Positions 1,722-57,683 of a DNA stretch of 57,906 nt are shown here, piece by piece; position 1 is the first letter of the stretch, and each line of letters starts with the position of its first letter. The translations under genes were made by a program, and so were the position numbers. The DNA comes from Thermoplasmatota archaeon (GTDB taxonomy: Archaea; Thermoplasmatota; DTKX01; DATEUP01): assembly GCA_035283065.1 (NCBI GenBank), contig DATEUP010000100.1, forward strand, positions 1-57,906. Reading direction: 5' to 3'. Below the pieces are notes generated by a model that had not been told where the DNA came from, ran no database searches, and saw only the letters and a program-made list of their open reading frames with translations.

Positions 1722-1724
1722 CTC

Positions 1725-3834: not shown

Positions 3835-3854
3835 GTTCCCTCCCTCCTTGGGTT

Positions 3855-5030: not shown

Positions 5031-5043
5031 AAGGCCGTGGTAA

Positions 5044-5067: not shown

Positions 5068-5108
5068 TATCGGCATTTACAGCCGGGCTTCCCTGAAGGC
5101 CGGCCAGG

Positions 5109-5558: not shown

Positions 5559-5570
5559 TCTCTTCCCCCC

Positions 5571-5717: not shown

Positions 5718-5737
5718 GTTCCGCTCGCCCGGCTTGC

Positions 5738-5764
5738 GCTACAATGTGGCTACAGGATAAAAGC
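5738..5764 (-). promoter_or_regulatory. Second copy of the TATA + TGTAGCYACATTGT promoter/operator motif.
   Basis: The minus strand reads GCTTTTATCCTGTAGCCACATTGTAGC, 21-47 nt upstream of the ATG of the 48-aa gene. It has the same orientation and architecture as 5044-5067. Confidence 0.45.
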
Positions 5765-5844
5765 TCGGCTGCGGGCGCCTGCGGGAGGTATTTACGCGAG
5801 GCTAATGATGCGGCCGGGACACATCGGCACGGAGGCCCTGAAGC

Positions 5845-9257: not shown

Positions 9258-12200
9258 TCAGACCTTCGGGCGCTTGCGCCGCTGCCTTCCGAGCAGGAAG
9301 AGCGCCGCACCCGCGCCCGCCAAGATCGGCACGAGCGCGAGGAGCCCCATCGAGGCCGGCGGCGAGGTCGTCACAGGCGCGGCCTCCGGCGCAGGCTCCG
9401 AGGGGGGCCGTTCTTCGACCACGAAGTTCACCCGCGCCTCGTTGTTGTACTCGTCGGACTCGTAGACCCGCCCCACCACGGGGCTTGCCCCCGGCTCGTC
9501 CTTCGGGTCAACAAAGAGGGCGAGCGCGTGGGCCCCCGCCTTGAGCGTGAGGGGTACGCGCAGGAAAACGGACAGCCCCGGCCCGACTGAGGGCACCTCG
9601 TCCACCAGCACAATACTTCCGTCGACGAGTACGCGAAGTCCCGTCGGCGCCGAGGCCGCTTGGCCCGCGTTTGCCACCCTCAGCACAACCTCTCCTGCAA
9701 GCTCGGGGTCGGCAAACCCCTGAGGCAGGCTCTCGACCGTGACCGTGAGGTCCGGCAACACGACCCGCACAACCGTCGCAAAGCTCGCCGTGGGTCCCCT
9801 CGCGCTCGACAGCACGACCGTCACCGGGACGCTCACGGGGACGGGCTCCCGCGGCGCAGTAATCTCGAGGAGGAGCCGCCCGCGCGCGTAGGGCGCCAGC
9901 GTAAGCGTCCCCGTCCCCAGGAAGCTCGTGTCGTTGGAGTCGCCCCGCTCGTAGCGCATGTCGACACCCCAATACTGCGGCGCGTCTACGCGCACCGTTA
10001 CGACGAAGATGTCCCGGACGTTTCCAAGGTGCCGCAGCGCGCCCTCAATCCCCACGACCCCCGAGGGCCCGACGTCGAGTCCCGACGCATTGAACGCCGC
10101 CTCAAGGCCGTAGGCGGCAGGCAACCGCACCGTAAGCGAGAGGTTCCAGGGGTCCATCGCGCCCGCCCTCAGCCGCACCGTGAGCTGGTACGACCCCGAG
10201 GGGGCCTCGGCGGGCGCCTGAACGCGAAGCGCGACCTTGCCCTGCCCGAAGGCGGGGACCTCTTCGGCCGGGGTGCCCCCGACGGAAAGCGCGCTTTCGA
10301 CGGTAAAGCCCGGAGGCGAGGCGACGACCTCGACTTCGACCGCCTCGCCGACATTCCCCATGTTCTCCAGCGTGAACTCGAACGAGGCCGCGCCGCTTGC
10401 GTCGGCGTCGACTGCGGTGCCCTGCGACCTCCACGCCGCGCTGTGCACGCTCCGGACGGTGATCTCGACGCGCGCTTCGCCCACGGCCACGCTGCCCGCG
10501 CAGGTGCCGCGCACCGTGAGGTTCAGCACTTGCCCCCCAGGGGCGTTGCCCGGCGCGGCGACCTCAAATGAAGCCGCCGCCGTCTGCCCGCCGGCAAGTC
10601 GCGCGCCAAACGGGCTCCCGAGGACCGTCCAACCCGAGGGCAGGCTCTCCACGAGCCCCAGCGTGCAGTCGACCGGCTGCCCCGCGTTCCCCTCGTTCAA
10701 CATCGCAAACGCCGGGCGCGTCGAGCCCCCGGGGTCCACCTCGACGGCCTGGAAGTCCGGCGTCACGACGGGCCTTGCCACGAGCCCCACGCGCACGCAG
10801 AACCCCGCGGTCGCCAGGGAAAAAACATCGTTGGGGTTCTGGACCTTGAGCCTTCCGCAGTAGCTTTCGCCCGCGCTCGCGTCGACCGGCGGCGTGACGG
10901 CGAGCACGACGGCCTGCGACGCGCCCCGCGGGGCCGTAAAGTCCGCCGCCGAAAGCGCGGCGCTCCAAGCCGGGTCGAAGGGCGGCACACTCAGGGCGAG
11001 CGGCACCCCCTGCTCGTCGGCAAGGCCCGTGTTGCGCACCGTGAACGTCAAATTGGCCGTGGCCCCCGGCCACGCGGTCACGTTTTGGTCCGCAGGGTCC
11101 ACCTGGAAACGGTGCCCGGCAACGACCGTCACGTTGACGCGAAGGTCGAGCACCACGCTCGGCCGGTGCACATCCGCCACCTGGACCCGCACCACGGCCC
11201 TGTAGGGCGTAGGGTCGAAGACCGGCCCCCGGACCTCCAGGGAAAGGCCCGCCGACTCGCCGGCCTCCAAACCGAGGTCCGCGACCGGCGCCCCCGTCGT
11301 GGCATTCACCACGCCGGCGGTCCAATTCGTGGGGCCTGCGCCCACGGAGACCACGGCCCCGACGGAGAGATTCACCGCCTCCGGCGACAGGCTCGCAAAG
11401 GCGAGTGGGACACTGCCCACTTCGCCGCGGATGAGGGTCATGTCCGGCGCGTCTACCGCCACCCGGTACCCCGTCCACCGCAGTCGCAGCGGCGCGCCCC
11501 AGATCGTCGAAGTGTAGGCCCCTGTGTCGTTTTGCCAAACGACCCAAACGGAGCCGTCAGGCGCCGCAGCCGCCCGCGCGTTCACGTCGGACTCGGCCCC
11601 CAGCGAGACGCTGGAGGCCGCCGCCACCACGGACAAATCGGCCGCGTCGAGCGCGCCCGCCCGGACTTTCAAGCCGCCCCCGCCCGCCGCCGACGACCAG
11701 ACCACGAGCACCTCGCCCGAGGGCAGGAGCACAGGGCGCGGCGTCTGCGCCTCCGGCTCGCTTGCAAAGACCACTCGGTCGGCAAGCTCCACACCCCCCG
11801 TCGCGTTGAGCTTTACCGCGTGGACGCTTGCGCCGTCCGACCATACGGCCACGACCCCGCCGTCCCCCACCGCCCCCACGCTGAGGTTCGCGGCCGTCGT
11901 GCCGAGGCTCACCGGCCCCCACGCCGCCGACCCGTTTTCGTTAAGGGCTCGCACGTATCCCGTCCCCGCCCGCGACGCCCAAGCGACCAGCATAAGCCCT
12001 GCGGGCCGGTCGTAAGCCAGCTGGGCCGGGAACCCCGTCCCGCCGTCGCTGTAGAGCGTCAGGTTCGTTGCCGTCCACGAGCCGTTTGCCGCCATCCGCG
12101 AGTAGAGCAGCGACGTGTTCCACCGCACGACGTGGACCGAGGCGTTTGCCCCCACAGCCACCGCCGCACTCGCCGTCCCGTAGGGCGTTGTCCCCACGCG

Positions 12201-12695
12201 CCGGTCCGCCACGAGCGTGCTCCCGGCAAGGTCCACGACCTTCACATTCACCGCCTGCGCCGGGAAGGCATAGGACCAGTAGACGCGCGCCATCCGGTCG
12301 GCCGCGTCGAGCGCCGCGTAAGCCCCCCGCGCCGTCGTATTCCCCCATGTGTCGTACTGGAGCCCCGGCGCCAGATCGACTTCCAAGCCGACGGGGTTTG
12401 CGTTTCCCCACTCAAACCTCTGCAGTTTCGGCGAGGTCCACCCCGGGAACGACCCGCCGAGGTAGCCCAGCACGAGGCCGCCGCCGGACTCAGCGAACGG
12501 CTCCGGGACTTCCTGGACATTCGAACCGCTCACTAGCTCGACTGCGCCCCCGACATCCAAGTACCGACCCTGAGGCACCTCGAGCGCGACCTCCGCGGCC
12601 TCCCGCCCCCCCGCGGCCGCCGGGCCCGTCACCAAGTTGCCCGCAACCAAAAGCGCGCAGAGCGCCAGGGCAGCCCCACCCGCCTTCGGCGACAT
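9258..12695 (-). CDS. Large cell-surface protein: signal peptide, propeller-like repeats, multiple NEW3/CARDB-type Ig-like domains, C-terminal TM anchor.
   Basis: I place the start at ATG 12695 (MSPKAGGAALALCALLVAGNLVTGPAAAGG is a signal peptide). The track start at 12821 would overlap the TatD gene. The C-terminal CARDB-like domain ends ...YESDEYNNEARVNFVV, followed by a Pro-rich linker and LLALVPILAGAGAALFLLGRQRRKRPKV. It has many N-x-S/T sequons. Confidence 0.8.
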   Translation of the reverse strand: MSPKAGGAALALCALLVAGNLVTGPAAAGGREAAEVALEVPQGRYLDVGGAVELVSGSNVQEVPEPFAESGGGLVLGYLGGSFPGWTSPKLQRFEWGNANPVGLEVDLAPGLQYDTWGNTTARGAYAALDAADRMARVYWSYAFPAQAVNVKVVDLAGSTLVADRRVGTTPYGTASAAVAVGANASVHVVRWNTSLLYSRMAANGSWTATNLTLYSDGGTGFPAQLAYDRPAGLMLVAWASRAGTGYVRALNENGSAAWGPVSLGTTAANLSVGAVGDGGVVAVWSDGASVHAVKLNATGGVELADRVVFASEPEAQTPRPVLLPSGEVLVVWSSAAGGGGLKVRAGALDAADLSVVAAASSVSLGAESDVNARAAAAPDGSVWVVWQNDTGAYTSTIWGAPLRLRWTGYRVAVDAPDMTLIRGEVGSVPLAFASLSPEAVNLSVGAVVSVGAGPTNWTAGVVNATTGAPVADLGLEAGESAGLSLEVRGPVFDPTPYRAVVRVQVADVHRPSVVLDLRVNVTVVAGHRFQVDPADQNVTAWPGATANLTFTVRNTGLADEQGVPLALSVPPFDPAWSAALSAADFTAPRGASQAVVLAVTPPVDASAGESYCGRLKVQNPNDVFSLATAGFCVRVGLVARPVVTPDFQAVEVDPGGSTRPAFAMLNEGNAGQPVDCTLGLVESLPSGWTVLGSPFGARLAGGQTAAASFEVAAPGNAPGGQVLNLTVRGTCAGSVAVGEARVEITVRSVHSAAWRSQGTAVDADASGAASFEFTLENMGNVGEAVEVEVVASPPGFTVESALSVGGTPAEEVPAFGQGKVALRVQAPAEAPSGSYQLTVRLRAGAMDPWNLSLTVRLPAAYGLEAAFNASGLDVGPSGVVGIEGALRHLGNVRDIFVVTVRVDAPQYWGVDMRYERGDSNDTSFLGTGTLTLAPYARGRLLLEITAPREPVPVSVPVTVVLSSARGPTASFATVVRVVLPDLTVTVESLPQGFADPELAGEVVLRVANAGQAASAPTGLRVLVDGSIVLVDEVPSVGPGLSVFLRVPLTLKAGAHALALFVDPKDEPGASPVVGRVYESDEYNNEARVNFVVEERPPSEPAPEAAPVTTSPPASMGLLALVPILAGAGAALFLLGRQRRKRPKV

Positions 12696-12763
12696 TGCAG
12701 GGGGCCCTTTCCCTTCGTTCCAATTAACCCTGCGCAATTGCGCTACCCTTCCACAACGCCCCC

Positions 12764-13621
12764 TTAGATCTCGACCTCGACGCCGTAGAGCGCTTCGGGG
12801 TTCTCCTTGTGGATCCTCCACACGCGCTCCTCTGCCACCCCCTGCTCAAGCATCGCCCGCGTCCGGCGCGGCACCGTCGCGGGCGCCATCACCGCCCCCG
12901 GCCTCCGCCTGTCGTCGATGAAGTCCGTCTCGAGCATGAACCGGTCCCCCTTTCCAAGCGCCTCCTTCACATTCGGCCTCGACGCCATCACGGACGGCAT
13001 GAGCCCGAAATTCTCGTCCGGCCGCACGAGCGGCCCGCAGTAGTGCTTCGCCACCTTCGCCTTCGAAAGGCCCGAGGCCTCAACCCGGGCCGCGAGGTCC
13101 TTCATCACTTCGACCGTCGCCGACTCCGTGTGGAGCTGAACGGCGAGCCCCGCGTCCTTCGCGGCCGCAAACTCAAAGGCCATCAGCCGGTTCGAAAACG
13201 CCCACATCTCCTCGGACACCGCGTAGTGGGGCCGACCCGCCTCCGAGAGCGCGACGACAAGCGGCTCCTCGCGCGCGATCTTCACGCACTGCCCGATGGC
13301 CCCCGTGAGGAGATCCCACGCGCCCTCGAAGCCCAGCCGCTCGCCGTGCCTCGTGAACTCGGCGGGGTGCGGGCAGAGCGCGACGAAGCACCGGACGTCG
13401 CCCCGCGCGTTCACGGCCCGCCCCATGTCAACCGTTCGCACGAACTCCGCCCGGTACGCTTCCGCCGTTGTCGAGAGGGCTTCGAAGTCGGGCTTGTGCA
13501 CGAGTAGGAAGTGCGTGCCCCCCGCCTTCACGAACTCGTCGACGCTCGCCTGGTAGCCGCCGTGGACGGGGTCAAGGTGGAAGTGGTCGTCAAAGACCGG
13601 CACGTTCGGAGGGGCTCCCAT
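12764..13621 (-). CDS. TatD-related metal-dependent hydrolase (TIM-barrel, archaeal COG1099 type).
   Basis: 285 aa. It has the N-terminal metal motif VFDDHFHLDP and later His/Glu/Asp ligand contexts (LHTES, ETDFID). Confidence 0.75.
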   Translation of the reverse strand: MGAPPNVPVFDDHFHLDPVHGGYQASVDEFVKAGGTHFLLVHKPDFEALSTTAEAYRAEFVRTVDMGRAVNARGDVRCFVALCPHPAEFTRHGERLGFEGAWDLLTGAIGQCVKIAREEPLVVALSEAGRPHYAVSEEMWAFSNRLMAFEFAAAKDAGLAVQLHTESATVEVMKDLAARVEASGLSKAKVAKHYCGPLVRPDENFGLMPSVMASRPNVKEALGKGDRFMLETDFIDDRRRPGAVMAPATVPRRTRAMLEQGVAEERVWRIHKENPEALYGVEVEI

Positions 13622-16711: not shown

Positions 16712-19700
16712 CTACCCCTCCGTCGAGCTCCCGACATCCGCGCTCTCGATCATGCGGATGCGCCCCTCATCGAACCGGTAGAGGGCGCGCGGGCGCTTGA
16801 GCACGACGTCCGTAAGGTTCGCGATCGCAATCTCGCCGAGGAAGTCCTCCGTCCTTGAGATGTCGCGCATGACAAGGACGCCGTCGACGGACTTGTCCGC
16901 GTTGTGCTGGTCGTCGCGCTCTTGGACGAGGATGAGGTCGCAGTTCGCGCCGCGCACGAGGTCCCGCTGGAGGGTCTCAACCAGGGACTTGTACTCGATC
17001 CCGTACTTGCGGGCAAGGGAATCGGCGCGGTCAACGACGATGACGAGCTTGCTCGGCAGGAGGCGCTCGACGGCGTCGTAGAGGTTCACGATCTCGGCCA
17101 TCGCCGGGTTGAGGGCAAGGAGCCTGGCGATGCGCTCCGTGTTGATCCGGTAGGTCTTCGGCCGGTCGAGGACGGGCGGCAGCGCGCCCGGGGGCAGGTC
17201 GCCTTTCAGCGAACGGACGGCGTCGACGAGCTTCTGGCGCGCGGCCCGCGCGTCCGCGCCGGGCGGCTGGAGGATTGCGTCGGGTGTGTTCGGCCGGTTG
17301 AAGAGCAGGAAGTCCTGGAGGCGCTTCTCGCCAACCCAGGCGTAGGCGTCGTGGAGGCGTTTGTCCGGCTCGTGGGTGAAGAGCAGGAGGACCTCGTCGT
17401 CGAAGTTCGCGAGGGCCTCGGCGAGCTCAAGGGCGAAGTTGCTCTTGCCCGTGCGCCGCTTGCCGTTGATGATGAGCGAGCGGCCGTTCGGCTTGTTGAG
17501 GTAGTTGAGGAGCTCCGAGGGCAGCGAGATCCGGCCCTTCGCCAGGGCGCGCCTGGCGGAGGCCTGCTGGGTTGCCGATTCGTCGAGCTTGCGCAGGGGG
17601 GCGAGGTCGGAGCCCGAGGAGGAGAGGACGGAGATCCGCTCCTCAAGGTCGCGCCTTGAGGCTTGCGTGCCCGACGGGGTCGCCGCCTGCGGTGCCATCG
17701 GCGGGCCGGGCCCGGGGGCCGCGGAGGCTAGGGAGGCGTGGGGCGCCTGGAGGGGCACAGGCCCCGAGGCGCCGGCGGTCGAGGATGTGGGCGTTTGCGG
17801 CGCGGCCTGCGGGGGCGCGGGCTGGTTCTGGACGGCCGCGGCCGCGCGCGCCGCCATGGAAGCCGCGCCCTTGGCCTCCGCGCGCGTCTTGTTGAGGTCG
17901 AGGCGCACGCCCTCGATCTCCTCCATCGCGAAACGCAGCTGGAGTTCGATCTCGTTGCGCTGCCGGCGCTCCTTGTCGACCTGCTGCTGGACGTCGGAAA
18001 GCGCCTGGTCCTTCGCACGGACGAGCTTGTTGGCCTCGAGCGCGTCGACCTTTGCGCGCTCAAGGTCCGTGGCGAGGTGCTTGATCTCCGCGGAGACGTC
18101 GGCCCCCGGGGACGCCGAGAGCGAGACCTTCGCCATGTCGGTCTGGAGCTTGGTGATCTCGCGGTCCATCCGGTCGACCGTCTCCTGGTCGCGGTCGCGC
18201 TGCCGCTCGGCCTGGGTGAGCGCATCGCGGACGTGCTGGAGCTCCTCCATCTGCTCCTGGAGCTTGAGCTGGGTCTCCTGGCGGCGGCGCTCCTCGTCGC
18301 GCAGGTTCGTGAGCGCCCGGTCGAGCTGCTGTTCCTTCGAGGCGCGGTCGGACTCCGCGACCTGGCGCGCCTTGTCGTTGGCCTCAGCGGAGACCTTGAG
18401 CTGCTTGACGGAGTCCTCGAGGCGCCGGGCCTCCTGCTCGACTTTGCCGCGGGCCTGGACTTCGCGCTCGACCTGCGTGCGGGCCTCTTCGAGGGCCACC
18501 TGCGTGCGCTTCGTGAGTGTCTCCTGCGTCTTTAGCGTCTCGCGTTCCTTGTTGAGCGAGGTGTTCAGCGACGCGATGTCTTTCGTCTGCTTGTCGAAGT
18601 GCTCCTGGATGACGTTGCGCTTCAGGGTGTCCGCCTCGACCTCGCGCTCGAGAGTGAGGACGGCCTCCTCGAGCTCCTTCATGCGCCCTTCGCTCACCTC
18701 GCGCCGCCTCTTCTGCTCGTCGAGCTGGCGCTTGAGGACCTCGAGCTCCTTGTCTTCGGCCTGGAGCTTCTTCGTGAGCTTGAGGGACTCGCCGCGGGCG
18801 ACCTCGAGGCTCGCCTCGAGCTCGACCATCTTGGCCTCGCCGCCCGAAAGGAGTCTCTCGAGTTCCTCGCCCCGGGTCGTCTGCCGCTTGAGCTCTTCCT
18901 CGGCCTCCAGGAGGCCCCGCTTGGCCTCCTCGAGCGCGCGCTCGGCGCGCTGCCTTAGCGAGATTTCCTCGTGGAGCTTGCGCTCATAGCGCTCGAGCTC
19001 GCCTTTGCGCTGCGCCGCCTCCTTCTCCTGGACTTCGCGCCGCTGGGACTCCTCCGCAAGGCGCGCCTTGAGGGTGGAGGCCTCTTCGACCGCGGAGCGC
19101 AGCGAGGTCTCGAGGGCCGAGAGCTTCTTGCGAGCGTCCTCCTCGGATTCGCGCATCCGCTGGGCCGCGTCGCGGGCCTCCTTGATCTCGGCCTCGAGCC
19201 GCTCCTGGTCCTCCTGCAGGACCGATTCGTGGGCCTCGAGCGCCTGCCGCTGCTGCTGGAGCTGGCCCATTTCCGCCTGCATCTCCTGCTCGACTTCGAG
19301 GAAGGACCGCTCGCGGGCGGCGGACTCGTCGCGGAACTTGAGGAGTTCCTTGAGTTTCAGGTCGAGGGCGTCCTTCTCCTCCCGCAGCTGCTTCTCGGTC
19401 TCGCCCTGGCGGGCTTTGAGCGCCCGCGCGCCCTGGAGCTCCTCCTGGAGAGAGGCCTCCTGCTGGTCGAGGCTCGCCTGGCGGGCGCGCAGCTCCTCGG
19501 AGAGTTGGACGAGCTGGTCGTTGAACGACTTGAGCTGGCGGTCGCGCTCCTTCGCGCTGATCTCGCCTTTGGAAAACCGCGCCTCGACGTCCTTCTTGCT
19601 CTTCTCGAGTTCTTCCGCGTCGTCGCGCATTTTGCGCTTGCGGCCCTCGAGATCCGTGACCTGGGCGGCAATCGCGTTTTCCCGGTCGGCCATGCCCGCT

Positions 19701-20077
19701 TCGCGGCGCCGGATCTCCATCTCGCGGCGCTCGATCTCGCGCAGCCGGTCGGCGGCCTGCAGCGCGGCTTCGTTGCCCTTGGCCTTCGCGTCGGCCTGGA
19801 GCCGCGACTTGAATGTCTGGAGGCGCGCCTCCCGGTCGGCGAGCTTCTTCAAGGTGGCGTCGAGGTCCGTGCGCCGCCTCTGCCTCTCGCTCGTGACCTG
19901 GGAGAGCTCCTGCTCCTTCTGGGCGGAGGTCTCCTCGACCTGCTTGCGGATTTCGGCCGACTGGGCGAGCTGCTTGTGGAGGGGGTCGGTCTTCGCGAGG
20001 AAGGACTTCTCGAGGATCTGGCCAAGCTGGGCTTCGTCGAGCGCAGCCACGTCGACGCCGCGCATGGCCTCGGGCAT
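16712..20077 (-). CDS. Giant coiled-coil protein (about 750 aa) with a Pro/Ala-rich linker and a C-terminal KaiC/GvpD-like P-loop ATPase domain.
   Basis: 1121 aa. The C-terminus has SLPSELLNYLNKPNGRSLIINGKRRTGKSNFALELAEAL (an intact GxxxxGKS), the Walker-B-like KLVIVVDRAD, and ends DGVLVMRD...YRFDEGRIRMI. Confidence 0.8.
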   Translation of the reverse strand: MPEAMRGVDVAALDEAQLGQILEKSFLAKTDPLHKQLAQSAEIRKQVEETSAQKEQELSQVTSERQRRRTDLDATLKKLADREARLQTFKSRLQADAKAKGNEAALQAADRLREIERREMEIRRREAGMADRENAIAAQVTDLEGRKRKMRDDAEELEKSKKDVEARFSKGEISAKERDRQLKSFNDQLVQLSEELRARQASLDQQEASLQEELQGARALKARQGETEKQLREEKDALDLKLKELLKFRDESAARERSFLEVEQEMQAEMGQLQQQRQALEAHESVLQEDQERLEAEIKEARDAAQRMRESEEDARKKLSALETSLRSAVEEASTLKARLAEESQRREVQEKEAAQRKGELERYERKLHEEISLRQRAERALEEAKRGLLEAEEELKRQTTRGEELERLLSGGEAKMVELEASLEVARGESLKLTKKLQAEDKELEVLKRQLDEQKRRREVSEGRMKELEEAVLTLEREVEADTLKRNVIQEHFDKQTKDIASLNTSLNKERETLKTQETLTKRTQVALEEARTQVEREVQARGKVEQEARRLEDSVKQLKVSAEANDKARQVAESDRASKEQQLDRALTNLRDEERRRQETQLKLQEQMEELQHVRDALTQAERQRDRDQETVDRMDREITKLQTDMAKVSLSASPGADVSAEIKHLATDLERAKVDALEANKLVRAKDQALSDVQQQVDKERRQRNEIELQLRFAMEEIEGVRLDLNKTRAEAKGAASMAARAAAAVQNQPAPPQAAPQTPTSSTAGASGPVPLQAPHASLASAAPGPGPPMAPQAATPSGTQASRRDLEERISVLSSSGSDLAPLRKLDESATQQASARRALAKGRISLPSELLNYLNKPNGRSLIINGKRRTGKSNFALELAEALANFDDEVLLLFTHEPDKRLHDAYAWVGEKRLQDFLLFNRPNTPDAILQPPGADARAARQKLVDAVRSLKGDLPPGALPPVLDRPKTYRINTERIARLLALNPAMAEIVNLYDAVERLLPSKLVIVVDRADSLARKYGIEYKSLVETLQRDLVRGANCDLILVQERDDQHNADKSVDGVLVMRDISRTEDFLGEIAIANLTDVVLKRPRALYRFDEGRIRMIESADVGSSTEG

Positions 20078-21660: not shown

Positions 21661-22440
21661 ATGCCGCCGGCCGAGGGTTCTGCGATGCAAGCTGGACAAA
21701 TGGCGTATGACCGCGCGATCACGGTGTTCTCCCCCGACGGCCGCCTGTTCCAGGTCGAGTACGCCCGGGAAGCCGTCAAGCGCGGCACGACGACGATCGG
21801 GCTGAAGTTCAAGGACGGCGTCGCCCTCATCATCGACAAGCGCGTCTCCTCGCGGCTCATCGAGCCCTTCTCGATTGAGAAGATCTTCGTCATCGACGAC
21901 CACATCGGCTGCGCGACCTCGGGGCTCGTCGCCGACGCCCGCGTCCTCGTCGACCGCGCGCGGGTCGAGGCCCAGGTCAACAAGATCACGTACGACGAGA
22001 CGATTCCCGTCGACATGCTCGTGAAGAAGATCTGCGACTTCAAGCAGAACTTCACGCAGTACGGCGGCGTCCGGCCCTTCGGGACCTCTCTCCTCATCGC
22101 GGGCGTGGACTCGGCGGGGACGCACCTCTTCGAGACCGACCCCTCGGGCGCGCTCATGGCCTACAAGGCCGGCTCGATCGGCTCGGGCCGCAACGAGGCG
22201 ATGGCCGTCTTCGACGAGAAGTACAAGGAGGACCTGAAGCGCGACGAGGCCGTGGCGCTCGGCCTCGAGGCCCTCGCGAAGGCCACCGAGGGGGAGATCT
22301 CGGAGGTCTCCGTCGAGATCGGGCTCATCGAGAAGGGGAAGCGCTTCCGCAAACTCGACCCCGACGAGGTTTCTAAGTACGTGAAGCAGTACCTGAAGGC
22401 GCATGAGGGTGACCCGAAGCCCGAAAAGAAGCCCGAGTGA
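21661..22440 (+). CDS. psmA: Proteasome subunit alpha.
   Basis: [35 protein letters not shown] is the alpha-subunit signature. 259 aa. Confidence 0.95.
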
Positions 22441-22476
22441 GGTCGGCCTCACCGGGCCCCTCGAGGGGGGCGCCTT

Positions 22477-23181
22477 GTGGTAAGCGTCGAGGACGCGGTC
22501 GTCGCGCGCTTCGAGAGCCACGGCGAGCGCTTCGAGATCCTCGTCGACCCGAAGATCACCGAAAAGCTCGCGCCGGACGGCTCGAACCTCTCGGACCTCC
22601 TTGCGGCCGACAAGATCTTCAAGGACGCGCGCAAGGGCTCGCAGGCCTCGAGCGAATCGCTGCAGAAGATCTTCAACACGACGGACTTCACCGCCTGCGT
22701 CCGCCACATCCTCAAGAAGGGCGAGGTCCAGCTCACGACCGACCAGCGGCGCGAGCTCACGGAGGCCATGCGGAAGAAGGTCGTTGCCGAGATCGTGAGG
22801 AACGCGATCAACCCGCAGACGAAGGGCCCGCACCCGCCGCAGCGGATCGAGACCGCGATGGCGGAGGCGCGGGTGCACATCGACCCCTTCAAGCCCGTCG
22901 AGGCCCAGGTGAAGGAGGTCATCGACGCGATCAAGCCGCTCATCCCGATCCGGGTCGAGCGCGCGCAGCTTGCGATCCGCGTCTCGGGCGAGAACTACGG
23001 GAGGATCTACAACGACCTCCACGGGATGGGCACGGTCAAGAAGGAGGAGTGGACGGGCGGGGGCGCGTGGATCGGGGTCCTCGAGGTGCCCGCCGGCATG
23101 GTCGGCGACGTGATCGACCGGCTGAACGAGCGCACAAAGGGCGACGTCGAGGTGCGCAAGCTCGACAAGCATGTCGTGTGA
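22477..23181 (+). CDS. sdo1: Ribosome maturation protein SBDS/Sdo1.
   Basis: 234 aa. [19 protein letters not shown] is the typical archaeal SBDS N-terminus. It lies between psmA and the exosome genes. Confidence 0.9.
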
Positions 23182-23191: not shown

Positions 23192-24280
23192 TCAGCGCCG
23201 CCGGAGGCCGGCAAGCCGCGCGGCCGGGCGGTGGGCGGCGGCGGCGAGCCGGACTTTGACCTCGACGGGCGCGAAGCGGTAGGCAAGGGCCGCGCCCGCG
23301 GCCACCGCCACGCCCGCGGCCCAGAGGAGCCCGGCCTGCGAGCCGGGAGGCGCCGCGGGGACGGGGTTTCGGCCGCCGGCGGCGGCCACGGGGTCGACGG
23401 CAAACGCGCAGCCCGAGAAGTCCGCGAACTCGCCGGAGGGCGAGGAGCCGTTCCACAGGGCGGGCGGCGCGATGAGGATCTCCTCAAGCTCGGAGGGCGC
23501 GAAGGTGTAGCGCTCGGCGCCGGTCCGCAGGACGGCGAAGTCGTCCTCGATGCGGATGCCGAAGCACCCCTCCAGGTACACGCCGGGCTCGACGGCCACG
23601 ACGTCGTTGCGGGCGGTGATGAGCACGTCGTCGGAGTCGGGGCAAAGCATGGGCGGCACGTGGACGTAGAGGCCGACACCGTGGCCGAGGCAGTGGATGA
23701 AGAACTCGCCGTACCCCTTCGAGTCGATGAAGGTGCGCGCAAGGGAATCGAGGTCGCGCGCGAGCGCCCCGGACTGCACGGCGGCGCTTGCAAGCGTTTG
23801 CGCCTCCTTGACGACGCCGTAGATCTCGACAAATTCCTCGGGCGGGTTTGGCCCCATGAAGTAGGTCTTCGTGTTGTCGCTCACCCAGCCCTTGTAGCGC
23901 GCGCCGATGTCCACGACGACGACTTCGCCGGGCAGGATCAGGTTCGCCGCGTCGTCCGACGGTTCGCCGTGGGGGATTGCCGAGGCGGGCCCGGAGGCGA
24001 CGATCGCCTCAAAACCCGCGACGTACTCGGATGAGCCGTTTTCGACCATCGCGCGTGAGAGGGCCGCGACGACGTCGGCCTCGGTCACGGGGACCTCGAA
24101 GGCGCGGGCAAGGGCGTCGCGGGCCGCGGCCTGGCCGAGGTCGGAGAGGCGCGCCGACTCGCGGATGAGCTCGCGCTTGACAACCGACGGGGCGTCGGGG
24201 GCCCCGCTCGCCGAAAGGGCGGGGCCGGCGGCAAGAAGGGCGATGAGCAGGAGGCACAGGGAGGCGGCGGGCCGGCCCAT
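23192..24280 (-). CDS. M24-family metallopeptidase (Xaa-Pro/creatinase fold) with a signal peptide and a C-terminal TM segment.
   Basis: The pita-bread metal ligand contexts are VVVDIGARYKGWVSD, HCLGHGVG, VVAVEPGVY and GIRIEDD. The N-terminus is MGRPAASLCLLLIALLAAGPALSASG and the C-terminus is LLWAAGVAVAAGAALAY plus a basic tail. Confidence 0.8.
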   Translation of the reverse strand: MGRPAASLCLLLIALLAAGPALSASGAPDAPSVVKRELIRESARLSDLGQAAARDALARAFEVPVTEADVVAALSRAMVENGSSEYVAGFEAIVASGPASAIPHGEPSDDAANLILPGEVVVVDIGARYKGWVSDNTKTYFMGPNPPEEFVEIYGVVKEAQTLASAAVQSGALARDLDSLARTFIDSKGYGEFFIHCLGHGVGLYVHVPPMLCPDSDDVLITARNDVVAVEPGVYLEGCFGIRIEDDFAVLRTGAERYTFAPSELEEILIAPPALWNGSSPSGEFADFSGCAFAVDPVAAAGGRNPVPAAPPGSQAGLLWAAGVAVAAGAALAYRFAPVEVKVRLAAAAHRPAARLAGLRRR

Positions 24281-24624: not shown

Positions 24625-25458
24625 GTGGAAAGCGTGGAAGTGGCAAGCGAAGGGGCAGGCGCGCCGGTCAAAGTCCGGTTTGTCCTGCCTGGTGATGCGA
24701 TCGAACTCAACGGGCTCAAGGCGGGCCCGGGCACTTACGAAGAGGGGGGCAAGGCGTTCGCCTCGCTCGTCGGGCTTGCGCTCGCGCACAAGGGCGTCCT
24801 TACGGTCGTGCCGCTCTCGGGCGTCTACAACGCGCGCCAGGGCGACGTCGTGATCGGCCATGTGCTCGACCTCGGGCCCTCGAACTGGACCGTGGACATC
24901 CGGGCGAGCCAGCCCACGTCCCTCCACGTGAACGACGTGCCTTGGAAGGTCGATTTCGGCGACACGGCGCGCTATGTCGACGTGGGCGAGGCCGTCCTTT
25001 GCAAGGTCTTCAAGGTCGATGAAGTGAAGCGCGTCTTCCTGACGCTGAGTGGCCCGGGCCTCCGCAAGCTCGAGGGCGGGCAAGTCGTCGAGGTCCCGCA
25101 CACGAAGGTCGCGCACATCGCAGGGAAGCGCGGCGAGAGGCTCGAGAAGATCAAGAAGTGGACGAACTGCCGGATCTACGCGGCCGCAAACGGGCGCGTG
25201 TGGGTTGACGGCGACCTGAAAGACATGGAAGTCGCCGTAGGGGCGATCCGCCTCATCGAGCGCGAGGCGAACGCGCCGGGGCTTTCCGATTCGCTCGACG
25301 CGTACCTGAAGGAGCACGGGCGGGAGCCCGCGCCCGAGGCGCAGGCCTCCGCGGGGTTCGGCACGGCCGACGAGGCGAAGGCCCAGGTTGGCGCCGCGCA
25401 GGGCGAGGACGGAGAAGAGACGAAGCGGCGCGAGAGCGCCGCGAAGGAGGAGGAATAG
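24625..25458 (+). CDS. rrp4: Exosome complex RNA-binding protein Rrp4 (S1 + KH).
   Basis: The S1 segment is GDVVIGHVLDLGPSNWTVDI. The KH segment is HIAGKRGERLEKIKKWTNCRIYAAANGRVWV. The tail is acidic. Confidence 0.9.
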   Translation: MESVEVASEGAGAPVKVRFVLPGDAIELNGLKAGPGTYEEGGKAFASLVGLALAHKGVLTVVPLSGVYNARQGDVVIGHVLDLGPSNWTVDIRASQPTSLHVNDVPWKVDFGDTARYVDVGEAVLCKVFKVDEVKRVFLTLSGPGLRKLEGGQVVEVPHTKVAHIAGKRGERLEKIKKWTNCRIYAAANGRVWVDGDLKDMEVAVGAIRLIEREANAPGLSDSLDAYLKEHGREPAPEAQASAGFGTADEAKAQVGAAQGEDGEETKRRESAAKEEE

Positions 25459-25508: not shown

Positions 25509-26801
25509 ATGGGAGGAGCAAATCCGGATGTTGTGCTGGTGAAGGACGATGGAATGCGGCTCGACGGCCGAAAGCTCGACGAGCTGCGCCCGATCAAGAT
25601 CAAGGCCGGCGTGCTCGAACGCGCGGACGGCTCGGCGTACATCGAGTGGGGGAACAACAAGGTCTACGTCGGCGTCTACGGGCCGCGCGAGGTGCACCCG
25701 CGCCACGACCAGTCGCCCTCGAAGGCGATCGTGCGCTGCCGGTACTCGATGGCGCCCTTCTCGGTCGACGACCGCAAGCGGCCGGGCCCCGACCGGCGCT
25801 CGCAGGAGATCTCGAAGGTCATTTCGGAGGCGTTCTCCGCCGTCGTGTTCACGGACCAGTTCCCGCGGACGGCAATCGACGTCTTCATGGAAGTCGTCCA
25901 GGCCGACGCGGGCACGCGCTGCGCGGCGATGACCGCCGCGGCCGTGGCGCTCGCCGACGCGGGGATCCCGATGCGCGACCTTGTGGTCGCGGTGGCGTCG
26001 GGCAAGATCAACGGGAAGGTCGCGCTCGACCTCAATAAGGCTGAGGACAACTTCGGCGAGGCAGACTGCCCCATGGGCATCGTCCCCTCGACGGGCGAGG
26101 TCGTGCTCCTCCAGATGGACGGGCACCTCACGCGCGACGAGTGGGAGCAGGCGCTTGCGTACAACCAAGCGGCCGTCAAGGTCATCCACGAGATTCAGAA
26201 GGAGGCGCTCAGGGAGCGGTGGGCGAAAGCCGCCGAGGCCGAGGGCGAACCCGAACTTTACCTCGAGGCGGCCCGCGAGGGCGCGCCTTCGGGCGAGGGA
26301 GGCGGCTCCTTTGGAGGCGGCGGCTTCCGCGGTGGACGCGGGGGCGGCGGCGGAGGCGGCGGCTTCCGCGGCGGCGACCGGGGCCGGGGCGGTGGCGGGG
26401 GATTCCGCGACCGTGACCGGGGCCGGGGCGGCGGCGGCGGCTTCAGGGACCGCGACCGGGGCGGCGGCGGTGGAGGCGGCTTCAGGGACCGCGACCGAGG
26501 CGGCGGTGGCGGCGGCTTCAGGGACCGCGAAAGGCGGCGGGACTCTGGCGGCGGGGACGCACCGCGCGACGGCCCTCCCGATTCGGGCCCCAGCGATTCT
26601 GGTGACACGGGCGGCGGCGGCGGGGGCGAAGGGCCCTCCCCGAGCGGCGACCGAATGGACGAATTCGCCGACCGAGACCGAATGGGGCTCGGGCGCAGGC
26701 GCAGGCGCACGGGCGGCGGCGGGGGCGGCTACGGCCGCGACCGCGGCGAGGGCAGGCCCGCAAACGACGAAGCCGGCGGGTCTGAAGGAGGGGGGGCGTA
26801 A
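25509..26801 (+). CDS. rrp41: Exosome catalytic subunit Rrp41 (RNase PH fold) with a C-terminal [10 protein letters not shown] low-complexity extension of about 185 aa.
   Basis: The RNase PH core is [43 protein letters not shown] ... [11 protein letters not shown] ... [26 protein letters not shown]. The core ends near aa 245 and the ORF continues to 430 aa. Confidence 0.9.
26296..26545 (+). repeat. In-frame tandem GGC-rich repeat encoding G(n)FRDRDRG units.
   Basis: The near-identical 23-mer ggcggcttcagggaccgcgaccg starts at 26436 and 26475, with a variant at 26511 (period 36-39 nt). More degenerate GGFRGG units lie upstream. Confidence 0.85.
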
Positions 26802-27593
26802 ATGTCCGAAGAATTCGTAGCCGCACTCAAGAAGGACTACCTCAACGAGCTCGCGCTCAAGGAGCAGCGCGTCGACGGCCGCAAGGCCGACGAAGTGCGC
26901 GCACTCAAGATCACCACCGGCGTGATCGGCACGGCCGAAGGGTCGGCGATGGTCGAGCTTGGCAAGACCAAGGTCTTCGTCGGCGTCAAGGTCGCCACGG
27001 GGTCACCCTTCAGCGACCGGCCGAAGGACGGCGTGATCATCACGAGCGCCGAGCTCATCCCGATCGCGTCGCCGAACTTCGAAGTCGGCCCGCCATCGCA
27101 AGCCTCGATCGAGGTCGCGCGCGTCGTGGACCGCGGGATCCGCGAGTCGAAGATGATCGAGCTCTCGGAGCTTTGCATCAAAGACGGGGAAAAGGTGTGG
27201 ATGGTGAACATCGACATCCACACGATCGACTACGACGGGAACCTCTTTGACGCGGCGCTCATTGCGGCCGTCGCCGCGCTGAAGACCACGGTGATGCCGG
27301 CCAAGCGGCTCAAGGTCGCGTCGGAGGACTTCCCGCTGAAGCTCCACCACACACCCACGTCGCTTACGGCGGTCAAGGTTGGCAAGAGCGTGTTCGTGGA
27401 CCCCCAGGTGGAGGAGGAGAGCGTCGCCCAGGCGCGCCTTACGGTGACTGTCGACGAGCACGGCGCAATCCGCGCGATGCAAAAAGGGCTGGTCGGTTCC
27501 TTCACGGTCGACGAGGTTAAATATATCATCGAGACTAGCCAGCGCCTCGGCCACGAGACTCGCGAAGCGATTCGAAAGGCCAGCGGGAAGTAA
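26802..27593 (+). CDS. rrp42: Exosome subunit Rrp42 (inactive RNase PH-like).
   Basis: 263 aa. RVDGRKADEVRALKITTGVIGTAEGSAMVELGKTKVFVGVK. The ATG immediately follows the rrp41 TAA. Confidence 0.9.
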   Translation: MSEEFVAALKKDYLNELALKEQRVDGRKADEVRALKITTGVIGTAEGSAMVELGKTKVFVGVKVATGSPFSDRPKDGVIITSAELIPIASPNFEVGPPSQASIEVARVVDRGIRESKMIELSELCIKDGEKVWMVNIDIHTIDYDGNLFDAALIAAVAALKTTVMPAKRLKVASEDFPLKLHHTPTSLTAVKVGKSVFVDPQVEEESVAQARLTVTVDEHGAIRAMQKGLVGSFTVDEVKYIIETSQRLGHETREAIRKASGK

Positions 27594-27615: not shown

Positions 27616-27936
27616 GTGGCGTCGGGCGCGCGGAAGGTGGCTGGCCGGTTCGGCCCCCGCTACGGCGTGAAGATCCGCAAGGGCGTCGAGGAAGTCGAGC
27701 GCCTGCAGAAGGCCCGCTACAAGTGCCCGAAGTGCGAGTTTGTCGCCGTGAAGAGGCACGCGTCGGGGATCTGGCGCTGCCGCCACTGCGGGCTCAAGTT
27801 TGCGGGCGGCGCCTACGCGCCGACCTCGAAGGAGATCGAGGCGCTCGAGGAGACCCTTTCCAAGGAAGGCGCCCCCGCTGAGGGCGACGAGGCCGAAGCC
27901 GCCGCAGAGCCCTCGCCGGCAAAGGCCTCGCCGTGA
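27616..27936 (+). CDS. rpl37ae: Ribosomal protein eL43 (L37Ae) with an acidic/Ala-rich C-terminal tail.
   Basis: GRFGPRYGVKIRKGVEEVERLQKARYKCPKCEF..VKRHASGIWRCRHCGLKFAGGAY, a C4 zinc ribbon. GTG start. Confidence 0.9.
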   Translation: MASGARKVAGRFGPRYGVKIRKGVEEVERLQKARYKCPKCEFVAVKRHASGIWRCRHCGLKFAGGAYAPTSKEIEALEETLSKEGAPAEGDEAEAAAEPSPAKASP

Positions 27937-27946
27937 GCCCGCGTCG

Positions 27947-28099
27947 ATGGAGGACCTCGATATGATGTACAAGTGCGGCCGCTGCAAGACGAAGGTCCAG
28001 CTCGACACCTCGACGGTGGGGCTCCAGTGCGAGCGCTGCGGGTCGAAAATCTTCTACAAGACGCGCCCGAATGTCAAGCGCGTGATCAAAGCGCGCTAG
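27947..28099 (+). CDS. rpoP: DNA-directed RNA polymerase subunit P (Rpo12).
   Basis: 50 aa from the ATG at 27947: MEDLDMMYKCGRCKTKVQLDTSTVGLQCERCGSKIFYKTRPNVKRVIKAR. This is the RpoP zinc ribbon plus the ...YK.R tail. The upstream part of track ORF 27800-28099 overlaps eL43. Confidence 0.85.
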   Translation: MEDLDMMYKCGRCKTKVQLDTSTVGLQCERCGSKIFYKTRPNVKRVIKAR

Positions 28100-39885: not shown

Positions 39886-42219
39886 TCAAGTCGAGCCCGC
39901 GTCGCTCCGGCGCAACGAGCGGTAGAGCGCAACCCCCGCGACGGCCGCGACGGCGATGAGCCCCGCGCCCACGAGCGCAAGGAGCGCAGACGTCCCTGCC
40001 TGTGCGCCGTTGAGTTCGGTTCGAAGCCGCACGCTTTCGTTCTGCTCGGCAGCCAAGTCTGTCTGCGTTAGGTTGAGCGCCGCCCGCGCGCCGTCAAGTT
40101 CCCCGCGCAGTGCCTGAATCTCGAGGCCGAGGCCGCCTACCTGGTCCGAGATCCGCGAGAGGTTCGCGTTCGTTTGGGTCTCGATTGCGGAGGCCTGGAG
40201 GTCGAGGGTCGTGAGTTCAGCCAGGGCTTGGGCCAAGTCGGACTGCGCCTGCGCGAGGCCGGCGGCGGTCGAGTTGAGCCTCGCGTCAAGCGCGGAGCCT
40301 TGACGCGCGAGGTCGTCGGAGGTCGACTCGAGCGCGGTGCGGAGGGCGGCAAGGTCCTGCTGGAGGAGCGAGATGTTCGACTCGGCCCCGGCAAGCGAGG
40401 CGGCGGTGCGGTTCAGTCTCGCCTCAAGGTCGTCAGCCCGCGCCCGGAGGTCGGCCGCCTCGCCTTGCAAGTCCGAGATGTTGGCGTCGGTTAGGTCAAG
40501 CCGTGCGCGCGTGAGATTCAAGAGGCCGAACACGGCCGAAAGGCGCGACGCCGTTCCGATGAGTTCGTTCCGCAGCCCTTCAAGGTCTGCGCGCAAGGCG
40601 GGATAGGGGTCGTTGAAAGTCACATTGACAACCCGAGATGCGACGTTGCCCGCGAGGTCTGTGGCCTGCACAGGAATTCCGTTGGGGCCCGGTGCAAGCG
40701 CGACTACAACGCTAAACGAGCCATTCGGGGACGGATGGAGCGCCAGGCCACCCACCGAGACGGCCGCGCCAGGCTCGGCCTGGCCCGACACGCGGACGGC
40801 GGGAACCGCGAAGGACGTGTTATTCGCCGGTTCAGCGAGGGTAAGCGCGGGCGCAGCGTGGTCGTACTCGACGTACCGGTTGGCGAAGATGTTCTGGAGC
40901 CCTGCCGGCGAGCCTCCCCAGGCCACAATGAACTGCCCCGACCCGGCCACGGCCGCATCCGAGCCAAAGGCCGACAAGTTGCCTGCGCCCGGAACGCGCC
41001 ATTCCGTCGCGCGCCATCCGCCGGATGGCGTGTACCGGTTCGCGACAAGCACGCCGTCGCCAAAGTACGTGGTTGCGACCGCCTCGCCGCTCGGCGCCAC
41101 GTCAAGGGCAGGGGTTTGGGCGGCTGCGAGGCCGTACGATTCGACGGGGGCGTCCGTCCCCCAACCCGTGCCGGGGACAAATCGGTTGGCGAGCATGCCC
41201 TCCGTCGTCCCATCATGCTGCCGCCAGAGGGCCACGGCTGCCCCAAAGGCGTCCATTCCCACGGATGGGAACCACACATCGGCCGCGCCGCTCTCGACAA
41301 GGACGCGCGCGGTCCACGCGGCGCCGGGCGCGAAATGGCTGGCGTACAGGTTGAGGCTGCCGCCGCCCTGCTGGGTCCATAGCACCGTCGCGTTTCCGGC
41401 CCGATCCATCGCCACGGCTGTCTGGACGCATGCGTTTGCCGCGTCGTTTTCGAGGAGCGTGGCGGCGCCCCAGCCTCCGGCGGCCGCGAAGCGGCGGGCG
41501 TAGGCGCTCTCGGCCCCGCCGAACGACTGCACCCATACGACCGTCGCGTTGCCGCCCTCGTTCATCGCCACACTCGGTTTCGAGGCGCTCGGGCTGCCTA
41601 CGTCCAAGGCTGCGGCGGGCCCCCAACCGCCAGATGGCGTCCACACCCGCCCGACGAGATTCCAGCTTGCCCCGTCGTACTGTAGCCAGACGGCCGTCGC
41701 GTTGCCCCCGGGCGAGACGGCAAGGTCGGGCTCCGTGAGGGAGTTCGCCTGCGTAGTGAGCGTGACGGTGGGCTCCCACCCCCAGCCGCCCACGAAATGC
41801 GCCGCGAAGATCGCGCTTGCCGAGCCCGCAGCGTTGAAGTGGTTCCAGAGGAAGAAGGCGCCTCCCGAGGCATCGGCCGCGACGCGGGGGTCGACGGCGT
41901 TGCCCGTCGTGTTGTTCCCGCCAAAGGACGAATTCGAAAGCACTCGTGCCTCGCCCCACCCGACGCCGGGGGCCATGCGGTTTGCCCACACTTCGATTCG
42001 GGTGCCATTGTACTGCTGCCAGATGGCGAAGACATTGCCGTTCTCGTCGGCGTCCACCCGGGGCTCCTCCCCAAAGGTGGCGGTGCCAGCCTGGAGGAGC
42101 GCGGAGACGCCCCAACCCTCCGGCGGCGCCCCGCCGGAGGCCGAGCCGGAGAGCCCGACCAATAGGGCGTTTGTAAGCAAGCCTACAACCAAGAGGATTC
42201 CAAGCTTCATGGTAGCCAC
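39886..42219 (-). CDS. Surface protein: signal peptide, eight Trp-containing propeller-like repeats, an Ig-like domain, a sequon-rich coiled-coil stalk, a C-terminal TM anchor.
   Basis: 777 aa. The repeat anchors are PEGWGVSALL, GVGWGEARVL, GGWGWEPTVT, SGGWGPAAAL, AGGWGAATLL, GAAWTARVLV, GTGWGTDAPV and SGGWRATEWR, each followed by ..GNA..VW.Q. The C-terminal about 230 aa are heptad-like with many N-x-S/T sites, then ALLALVGAGLIAVAAVAGVALY. Confidence 0.8.
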   Translation of the reverse strand: MATMKLGILLVVGLLTNALLVGLSGSASGGAPPEGWGVSALLQAGTATFGEEPRVDADENGNVFAIWQQYNGTRIEVWANRMAPGVGWGEARVLSNSSFGGNNTTGNAVDPRVAADASGGAFFLWNHFNAAGSASAIFAAHFVGGWGWEPTVTLTTQANSLTEPDLAVSPGGNATAVWLQYDGASWNLVGRVWTPSGGWGPAAALDVGSPSASKPSVAMNEGGNATVVWVQSFGGAESAYARRFAAAGGWGAATLLENDAANACVQTAVAMDRAGNATVLWTQQGGGSLNLYASHFAPGAAWTARVLVESGAADVWFPSVGMDAFGAAVALWRQHDGTTEGMLANRFVPGTGWGTDAPVESYGLAAAQTPALDVAPSGEAVATTYFGDGVLVANRYTPSGGWRATEWRVPGAGNLSAFGSDAAVAGSGQFIVAWGGSPAGLQNIFANRYVEYDHAAPALTLAEPANNTSFAVPAVRVSGQAEPGAAVSVGGLALHPSPNGSFSVVVALAPGPNGIPVQATDLAGNVASRVVNVTFNDPYPALRADLEGLRNELIGTASRLSAVFGLLNLTRARLDLTDANISDLQGEAADLRARADDLEARLNRTAASLAGAESNISLLQQDLAALRTALESTSDDLARQGSALDARLNSTAAGLAQAQSDLAQALAELTTLDLQASAIETQTNANLSRISDQVGGLGLEIQALRGELDGARAALNLTQTDLAAEQNESVRLRTELNGAQAGTSALLALVGAGLIAVAAVAGVALYRSLRRSDAGST

Positions 42220-45130: not shown

Positions 45131-45161
45131 GGAACCGTGACGTGCATGGCCTCTGGCGAAA

Positions 45162-45169
45162 GTTAAAAC
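45162..45169. promoter_or_regulatory. Shared AT-rich TATA-like element between the divergent CBS and Fap7 genes.
   Basis: GTTAAAAC lies 25-32 nt from the GTG at 45194 (+) and 32-39 nt from the ATG at 45130 (-). Confidence 0.35.
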
Positions 45170-45193
45170 CTTGGACAGGGGTGCTACGGCGCG

Positions 45194-57604: not shown

Positions 57605-57683
57605 ACGCGTACTCGCGCCAGAAGGCACGCGGGGCAAATAGGTTTCGCAACTTGCCGAAGGTCTGGCGAGGGGGTGAGCGGAA

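Follow-up and report, generated by a model that had tools for sequence, protein, structure and literature searches.

A predicted disordered Gly-Arg tail on the exosome subunit Rrp41 in a lineage of soil Thermoplasmata archaea

Studies of the archaeal exosome have concentrated on enzymes with a compact catalytic subunit, Rrp41, of ~245 amino acids (aa), and RNA recruitment has been assigned to the Rrp4, Csl4 and DnaG caps. What might a long Gly- and Arg-rich extension be doing at the C-terminus of this enzyme? The question is raised by a 58-kb stretch of contig from a soil Thermoplasmata archaeon (57,906 nucleotides (nt), ~69% GC; hereafter the window), in which an open reading frame (ORF) at 25509–26801 encodes a 430-aa Rrp41 made up of a core to about residue 245 and a tail of 185 aa (features of the exosome operon lie on the forward strand; − marks the minus strand). 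An initial annotation of this DNA had described the extension as a eukaryote-style RGG or Gly/Arg-rich (GAR) tail encoded by near-perfect tandem repeats. The reading we favour, to which we give roughly even chances, is that a lineage-specific, translated and selectively maintained disordered tail acts as a set of low-specificity RNA-binding arms on the exosome ring.

Sequence comparison identifies the ORF as the archaeal exosome catalytic subunit Rrp41. Pfam assigned RNase_PH (PF01138) to residues 25–154 (E = 9e-37) and RNase_PH_C (PF03725) to residues 157–217 (E = 1e-8), and the NCBIfam Rrp41 equivalog TIGR02065 (ECX1) scored 361 bits over a cutoff of 318.7, its alignment reaching residue 237. 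Competing models for RNase PH (96 bits) and Rrp42 (59 bits) each remained under their own cutoffs, and the PNPase model was likewise outscored. Solved archaeal Rrp41 chains align to residues 245–252, the best being those of T. acidophilum (8xie/8xfx; E = 1e-94 to 1e-102), and AlphaFold2 returned a confident core with its final helix at residues 209–244. As these four lines of evidence agree, the RNase PH core (residues 1–245; 25509–26243) ends at about residue 245, which is where the initial annotation had placed its end, with ~185 aa to follow. Within the core, R96, R97, T136, R137, D180 and D186 are invariant across 50 homologues; the phosphate-binding Arg and catalytic Asp residues of S. 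solfataricus (R99, R139, D182 and D188) are presumably among their equivalents, the mapping being made through an alignment offset of +2.

The tail occupies residues 246–430, directly after the last helix of the core, and reads exactly as first quoted. It begins with an acidic linker (26244–26309), A(K/R)AA(E/D)AEGEPE..E..R, predicted to be disordered and mostly invariant in all tail-bearing relatives, with variation at one K/R and one E/D position. The linker is followed by an array of six 12–13-aa units of the form F-R-(G/D)-(G/R)-(D/R)-R-Gn (residues 268–345; 26310–26543; net charge ~+8), a variable, acidic spacer rich in Gly, Asp, Ser and Pro (residues 346–380; 26544–26648), a short conserved motif (residues 381–400; 26649–26708) and a terminal Gly/Arg/acidic stretch that closes with the TAA stop and abuts the Rrp42 ATG (26709–26801). 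The motif is in frame in every complete tail-bearing relative; its consensus in the alignment of relatives is (D/N)R(M/L)(D/E)EFADRD(R/K)MGRG followed by basic residues, and across 0.94 Mb of compared loci it occurs only in these tails. Overall, Gly contributes 42%, Arg 18%, Asp 11% and Glu 6% of the tail, with ten Phe/Tyr residues and no Lys. By block, in order, the charge alternates (−3, +8, −6, +3), and most Arg residues adjoin Asp, with 23 RD/DR dipeptides in all. AlphaFold2, run on a 50-sequence alignment, gave predicted local distance difference test (pLDDT) scores of 35–50 and zero secondary structure over residues 249–430. The tail is accordingly predicted to be intrinsically disordered, in line with the initial interpretation; it is a Gly/Arg-dominated region with interspersed aromatics, although Asp and Glu together make up 17% of it and its net charge is +2.

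How close is this to a canonical RGG tail? The spacing rule for the RGG/RG class, RGG-X0–4-RGG, comes from Thandapani et al. 2013 in the form in which PMC6821194 cites it. By that rule the window tail holds two di-RGG, one tri-RG and four di-RG arrangements and zero tri-RGG, while its relatives hold 1–7 tri-RGG, so that on sequence the window tail belongs to the class only at the weaker di-RGG level. No obvious protein arginine methyltransferase was seen among the window ORFs that were scanned, and the window holds no other Gly/Arg-rich protein. The G-rich coding strand of the tail contains no canonical G-quadruplex motif, and the idea that an RGG tail acts on a G-quadruplex in its own mRNA was dropped for that reason. 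Two overlapping ORFs, one on the minus strand (26258–26710; poly-Pro) and one off-frame on the plus strand (25981–26820; poly-Ala), were set aside as by-products of GGC repeats, selection being on the Rrp41 frame.

At the DNA level, two exact copies of the 23-nt repeat GGCGGCTTCAGGGACCGCGACCG lie at 26436 and 26475, and the third copy listed in the initial annotation, at 26511, carries two mismatches; none is expected from shuffled sequence. Tandem Repeats Finder reported a period of 39, 5.2 copies and 84% matches over 26313–26516, and the earlier units diverge by synonymous codons (e.g., CGC versus AGG for Arg). Given this level of identity and these codon differences, the description of the array as near-perfect fits its 3′ end, that is, the last two to three units, but not the array as a whole. 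The chance of a stop-free run of 185 codons at the base composition of the window is P ~0.02; the open frame by itself is therefore weak evidence, and it is the conservation data that make the case strong.

The window sequence is present in ~20 soil metagenome runs. In four runs compared over 25900–27100, Logan unitigs match 25900–26465 and 26468–27100 with zero differences; these four independent runs thus show no stop or frameshift after the core. The unitigs of runs X1 and X2 fall into four pieces: 25900–26465; a 62-nt node (26436–26497) whose depth is about double that of its flanks; a 37-mer (26468–26504) with one mismatch at ~1× depth; and 26468–27100. The unitig graphs of the soil runs thus contain a 39-nt cycle within 26436–26504. 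In a simulation at k = 31, the window as given yielded one unbranched unitig, whereas duplication of 26459–26497 yielded exactly the four observed pieces and their depth ratios. The window assembly has probably collapsed one in-frame unit of 39 nt (13 aa), and the protein of the sampled population would be ~443 aa long, with copy number taken here from unitig graphs rather than raw reads. The graph of run X5 is related but not identical to those of X1 and X2, and some strain heterogeneity is likely, with every such difference in frame. Two contigs of short-read assemblies, L002 and L084, end inside the repeat.

The tail is not peculiar to this assembly, nor does a stop or frameshift follow the core; both outcomes that the initial annotation had named as refuting its reading thus fail to appear. 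Relatives that bear the tail, at least nine of them full-length and four partial, were found in JGI, ENA, NCBI and read-derived (SRA) assemblies, with the same operon in all of them. The closest relatives have Rrp41 cores 86–92% identical to that of the window, and all carry the same type of tail. Full-length proteins include P0002 (493 aa), P0290 (encoded on L001; 498 aa), P0291 (485 aa), P0003 and P0292 (481 aa each), P0004 (511 aa), P0294 (523 aa) and P0289 (432 aa); L002, L084, P0005 and P0293 are cut by contig or read ends. A metagenome scan with tail-specific patterns gave at least one confirmed locus, L084, which belongs to a near-identical strain and lies on a contig that begins within the repeat. 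Two tail-bearing relatives are GTDB species representatives, labelled 'Thermoplasmata archaeon'. Alignment of the tails revealed a common layout: the linker A(K/R)AA(E/D)AEGEPE, variable F/Y-R-D-R-D-R-Gn units (FGDRGG-type in L082), species-specific micro-repeats in the spacer (GDQPQ, GDRP or PREGGDRESGGG), the conserved motif and a Gly/Arg end. Among all Rrp41 proteins with core identity below ~85%, the Gly-Arg tail is absent; the next relatives, at most ~75% identical, have a tail of another kind, ~30 aa long, acidic and rich in Pro, with PPEVDDL often at its end. From these comparisons, the Gly-Arg tail is confined to a narrow soil Thermoplasmata clade with Rrp41 cores at least ~85% identical. 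The (P)PEVDDL ending is itself conserved in P0008, P0011, P0021, P0072 and L003:2229–3182, and may be another terminal docking motif. Three further sequences stand apart. P0006 is identical to the window protein to about residue 186 and then continues as a different Rrp41 sequence, probably reflecting a chimeric contig; P0106 (481 aa) is rather a frameshift fusion of Rrp41 and Rrp42; and at L029 (Micrarchaeota), where tblastn gave a match into the tail, Rrp41 is a plain 244-aa protein.

We then asked how the tail evolves, using L001 and L083 as a pair close enough for an unsaturated comparison. Their cores differ by 55 synonymous and zero non-synonymous changes, and their tails by 57 synonymous and 18 non-synonymous changes over 238 aligned codons, corresponding to a synonymous divergence (dS) of 0.38 and a ratio of non-synonymous to synonymous divergence (dN/dS) of ~0.09. 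On these sequence data the tail is under purifying selection. All six indels between the two tails are multiples of three, and the motif stays in frame behind repeat arrays of differing length in at least four species-level lineages. Unit number varies among near-identical cores (485/493/498 aa; 511/523 aa; and, in the group of the window, 430/432 aa), the 511- and 523-aa proteins differing by one additional PREGGDRESGGG unit. With unit counts varying in frame and dN/dS low, the array, evolving by slippage of units, grows and shrinks fast while its peptide content is held. The recent expansion or contraction proposed in the initial annotation is thus borne out, both by these in-frame differences between near-identical strains and by the 39-nt unitig cycle; copy-number differences between short-read assemblies may nevertheless be partly assembly error.

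Is a long tail at this position exceptional in archaea? A length of 240–250 aa had been given as normal for archaeal Rrp41, and this holds for the crystallised enzymes. When 1.84 billion cluster representatives were searched exhaustively with HMMER, however, C-terminal extensions of 57–232 aa were present on at least 15 of the ~35 Rrp41 representatives that head the listing. All 15 are acidic, with net charges of −5 to −91, 23–49% Asp plus Glu and almost no Arg or Gly, whereas the tails of the window clade contain 37–44% Gly and 14–24% Arg and have net charges of +1 to +12. The acidic extensions (e.g., P0125, P0133, P0135, P0142 and P0155) resemble the window tail in their attachment point, their length and their low complexity; they differ in a net negative, Asp/Glu-rich composition that the window tail (+2) does not share. 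Further representatives with acidic tails are P0127, P0132, P0134, P0137, P0138, P0146, P0147, P0152 and P0156. Judging from these sequences, the window Rrp41 is unusual in the chemical make-up of its tail rather than in having one. We found no discussion of acidic Rrp41 extensions in the exosome literature. Four of the acidic-tailed proteins (P0142, P0147, P0155 and P0156) end in a common [IM]xRD[LI]E[FY] plus acidic residues, loosely like the DRMDEF of the window clade.

Searches with the tail or its repeats led to bacterial RNA-binding proteins. A tail-only search of 5.8 billion proteins, in which composition correction removed even true relatives, gave a single match, P0121 (E = 1.7e-4). 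This protein, encoded on L085, comprises the KH end of a bacterial PNPase and its S1 domain (TIGR03591 positions 608–688) and, after these, ~135 aa of GGGGFRDR(D)R repeats. At its locus (L085:1–1001), the 3′ end of the bacterial gene, pnp, is followed downstream by dapB and dapA; the frame is broken upstream of the KH end, through either a contig error or pseudogenization. Searching with the repeat block at E-values up to 10 gave eight non-significant matches, namely two bacterial ribosomal S6 proteins (P0295 and P0296) and six bacterial RRM proteins (P0297 and P0302 among them), some of the RRM tails reading GGGGYRDRDR. In nine of nine look-alikes that share tail words, the tail is attached to an RNA-binding protein, and Arg-rich low-complexity regions are reported to be enriched among prokaryotic RNA-binding and RNA-processing proteins (PMC6821194). 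The PNPase, S6 and RRM tails have a near-identical repeat unit and likewise lie C-terminal to an RNA-binding fold, and in bacteria PNPase corresponds structurally to the exosome ring together with its cap (PMC11201974; TIGR03591 match). They belong, though, to another domain of life and to other folds, and none has the conserved motif of the Rrp41 tail. In the literature we found no experimental characterisation of these bacterial tails, and no report that archaeal Rrp41 carries a Gly-Arg tail, that archaeal exosomes form condensates or that PNPase has RGG-like tails.

The likeness to eukaryotic GAR domains (fibrillarin, nucleolin, GAR1 and FET) stood in part. The Rrp41 tail is likewise Gly/Arg-dominated with interspersed Phe/Tyr, is predicted to be disordered and is attached to an RNA-processing enzyme, and it has di-RGG spacing, with tri-RGG in relatives. 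The eukaryotic domains are strongly basic, whereas the Rrp41 tail is a mixed-charge FRDRDR-Gn sequence, near neutral, whose unit is also found on bacterial proteins; 'eukaryote-style' therefore suits its spacing but not its charge. Sequence searches with the tail or the repeat block gave no significant matches to eukaryotic proteins. According to PMC7194090, the GAR domain of fibrillarin is a eukaryotic addition to an archaeal-type enzyme, and for this reason the resemblance is one of convergence rather than inheritance.

How could such a tail work? The exosome ring is a trimer of Rrp41-Rrp42 dimers (PMC11201974), so that each complex would carry three tails with ~18–21 aromatic-Arg units in total. 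In PNPase, the Rrp41-like second PH domain runs on C-terminally into the KH and S1 domains on one face of the ring (PMC11201974), and by that placement the Rrp41 tails would emerge near the RNA-entry face; the T. acidophilum structure paper does not describe the geometry at the C-terminus of Rrp41. That tails of this kind occur on bacterial RNA-binding proteins suggests that the Rrp41 tail may help the enzyme to take hold of RNA. Contacts made by Arg and aromatic residues, with Gly between them, could bind RNA with low specificity, and flexible tails could raise the local RNA concentration at the ring, improving the rate of capture or retention. The tails might also let exosomes and RNA associate multivalently, and the conserved motif could serve for docking, whether to the complex itself or to a partner.

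Several observations weigh against this RNA-binding reading. The near-neutral charge (+2 overall, +8 in the repeat block) and the placement of Arg beside Asp should make electrostatic binding of RNA weaker than in a canonical GAR domain. A search for RNA-seq runs found no RNA run, and the AlphaFold2 monomer model neither folds nor docks the conserved motif. In every other archaeal lineage examined, the tail at this position is strongly acidic, which speaks against RNA binding as the role that Rrp41 tails had ancestrally. The bacterial look-alikes, with mostly non-significant E-values, represent low-complexity resemblance at the sequence level and not homology. Triplet slippage by itself gives in-frame indels; dN is biased downward by the protein-guided alignment of repeats; and 69% GC together with GGC slippage favours Gly, Arg, Asp and Pro codons whatever the function. 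In-frame indels from slippage are also expected under the notion, which we consider quite improbable, that the tail is a functionless by-product of replication slippage in GGC-rich codons of a 69% GC genome, tolerated at a permissive surface terminus. Copy number does turn over fast between near-identical strains, the tail disappears below ~85% core identity, and the terminus is evidently permissive: many lineages are tailed there, and the name of one solved construct gives Rrp41,Rrp42 for a single chain. Against neutrality stand the low dN/dS of ~0.09 at a dS of 0.38, a motif kept in frame behind variable arrays in at least four species-level lineages, and a unit peptide preserved through synonymous codon changes. 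That the true gene ends after the RNase PH core, or that the tail is a chimeric join, has next to no probability. Short-read contigs do break in the repeat (L002 and L084), the window is probably one unit short, and among the database relatives P0006 looks chimeric and P0106 is a frameshift fusion; yet unitigs of four runs match the window over 25900–26465 and 26468–27100 without a difference, four sources of independent assemblies show the same architecture, the Rrp41 reading frame is under selection, and the copy-number error amounts to 39 nt, in frame.

Two other explanations grant the tail a function. By analogy, the conserved motif might dock a partner or fold back on the cap or ring, with the repeats mainly as a flexible spacer whose composition is set by GC pressure and slippage. 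Bacterial SSB offers the model, with an OB-fold core, a variable disordered linker rich in Gly, Pro and Gln, and a conserved acidic-aromatic tip. The Rrp41 tail shares the plan of a folded core, a repeat-rich linker of variable length and a short acidic-aromatic motif; it differs in that its motif precedes a basic stretch instead of forming the extreme C-terminus, and fold and substrate are unrelated. We regard this explanation as somewhat unlikely. It gains from conservation within the tail being highest in the motif, against free variation in repeat number and spacer sequence, from the frequency of disordered tails of any charge at this terminus in other archaea, and from the acidic-aromatic motif xRD[LI]E[FY] that ends four acidic-tailed representatives. 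It loses in that aromatic-Arg periodicity and Gly runs are kept across species at low dN/dS, which argues that the repeats are not a freely drifting spacer, in that AlphaFold2 does not place the motif and the partner is hypothetical, and in that the likeness to the acidic-tail motif is loose.

DEAD-box helicases and RNase E are RNA-decay enzymes known to carry disordered Arg-rich tails. The C-terminal domain of RNase E, scaffold of the degradosome and of the bacterial ribonucleoprotein bodies (BR-bodies) of Caulobacter, is, like the Rrp41 tail, a disordered, charge-patterned appendage on an RNA-decay enzyme, and its short conserved docking motifs may have a counterpart in the conserved motif of the Rrp41 tail; predicted disorder, alternating charge blocks and multivalency are all found in the Rrp41 tail. 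RNase E, though, is an unrelated endonuclease with a longer tail and mapped partner sites; for the Rrp41 tail, a partner and condensation are hypothetical. Three tails per ring might nonetheless phase-separate the exosome with RNA into a BR-body-like decay body in which RNA, salt or phosphate tunes activity. The sticker-and-spacer layout, with F/Y plus Arg every 12–13 residues and Gly runs between, the alternating blocks (−3, +8, −6, +3) and the trivalency conferred by ring symmetry (PMC11201974) would suit such a body, and condensates of RNase E stimulate PNPase, a homologous phosphorolytic enzyme (PMC10412687). We nevertheless hold it to be unlikely: the argument is wholly one of composition, the tail is short with a net charge near zero, and our literature searches gave no report of archaeal exosome condensates. 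A fuller version, a self-scaffolding exosome whose three tails drive RNA-dependent clustering as an archaeal counterpart of BR-bodies, whose motif recruits a partner and whose tail type arose independently on bacterial PNPase, is to our mind equally doubtful.

In these comparisons, the C-terminus of Rrp41 is a place to which long disordered tails are joined again and again across archaea. One soil lineage has a Gly-Arg-aromatic tail in place of the usual acidic one, with a repeat unit that PNPase, S6 and RRM proteins of bacteria carry as well. Should the tail bind RNA or favour clustering, RGG-like modules would have converged on homologous machineries of RNA decay in archaea and bacteria, and the Rrp41 tail would offer a simple system for studying tail effects on a processive phosphorolytic enzyme. 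If it is functionless, it would exemplify how GC pressure and slippage build low-complexity sequence that is then kept under purifying selection.

The gene neighbourhood is that of a classic archaeal exosome operon, as judged from gene order and domain matches: Rrp4, Rrp41, Rrp42, L37Ae and RpoP. Rrp4 (24625–25458; 277 aa; Pfam ECR1_N, RRP4_S1 and KH_1), the cap subunit, lies directly upstream of Rrp41, as it does in L001, L082 and L083. With a full cap protein bearing both S1 and KH domains encoded there, the initial suggestion that the tail might substitute for accessory RNA-binding subunits finds no support. Rrp42, the other ring subunit (26802–27593; Pfam RNase_PH and RNase_PH_C), begins immediately after Rrp41, the TAA stop abutting its ATG (...GCG TAA ATG...); in L001, L081, L082 and L083, too, stop and start abut or overlap. 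Ribosomal protein L37Ae and RNA polymerase subunit P (RpoP) follow at 27616–28099 (Pfam Ribosomal_L37ae and Zn_ribbon_RPAB4). The C-terminus of Rrp4 (25320–25458) is itself an acidic tail of ~45 aa ending in KRRESAAKEEE, kept in L001 and L002 and only short in the more distant L003; it could pair with the Gly-Arg tail of Rrp41. Upstream of Rrp4, an M24 peptidase-like gene (23192–24280, −) separates it from proteasome-alpha/SBDS (21661–23181), an insertion also present in L082 but not in L083.

Elsewhere in the window, an apparent N-terminal extension of the aIF2-gamma ORF was discarded as merely an upstream alternative start, and an ORF of 1121 aa at 16712–20077 has no Pfam match. Four large ORFs of 777–1375 aa (9258–12821, −; 39886–42219, −; 46582–50709, +; 55073–57814, −) contain NPCBM_assoc, CARDB, Glucodextran_B or TSP3 repeat domains and probably encode surface or secreted proteins. 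At 124–6804, two genes resembling the D component of 2-hydroxyglutaryl-CoA dehydratase (2557–5030, −) lie between two enoyl-CoA hydratases, a gene content that suggests an amino-acid or acyl-CoA fermentation module. Finally, a 616-aa ORF (43940–45790, −) contains CBS domains and also weakly matches the S30AE family of ribosome hibernation, an unusual pairing.

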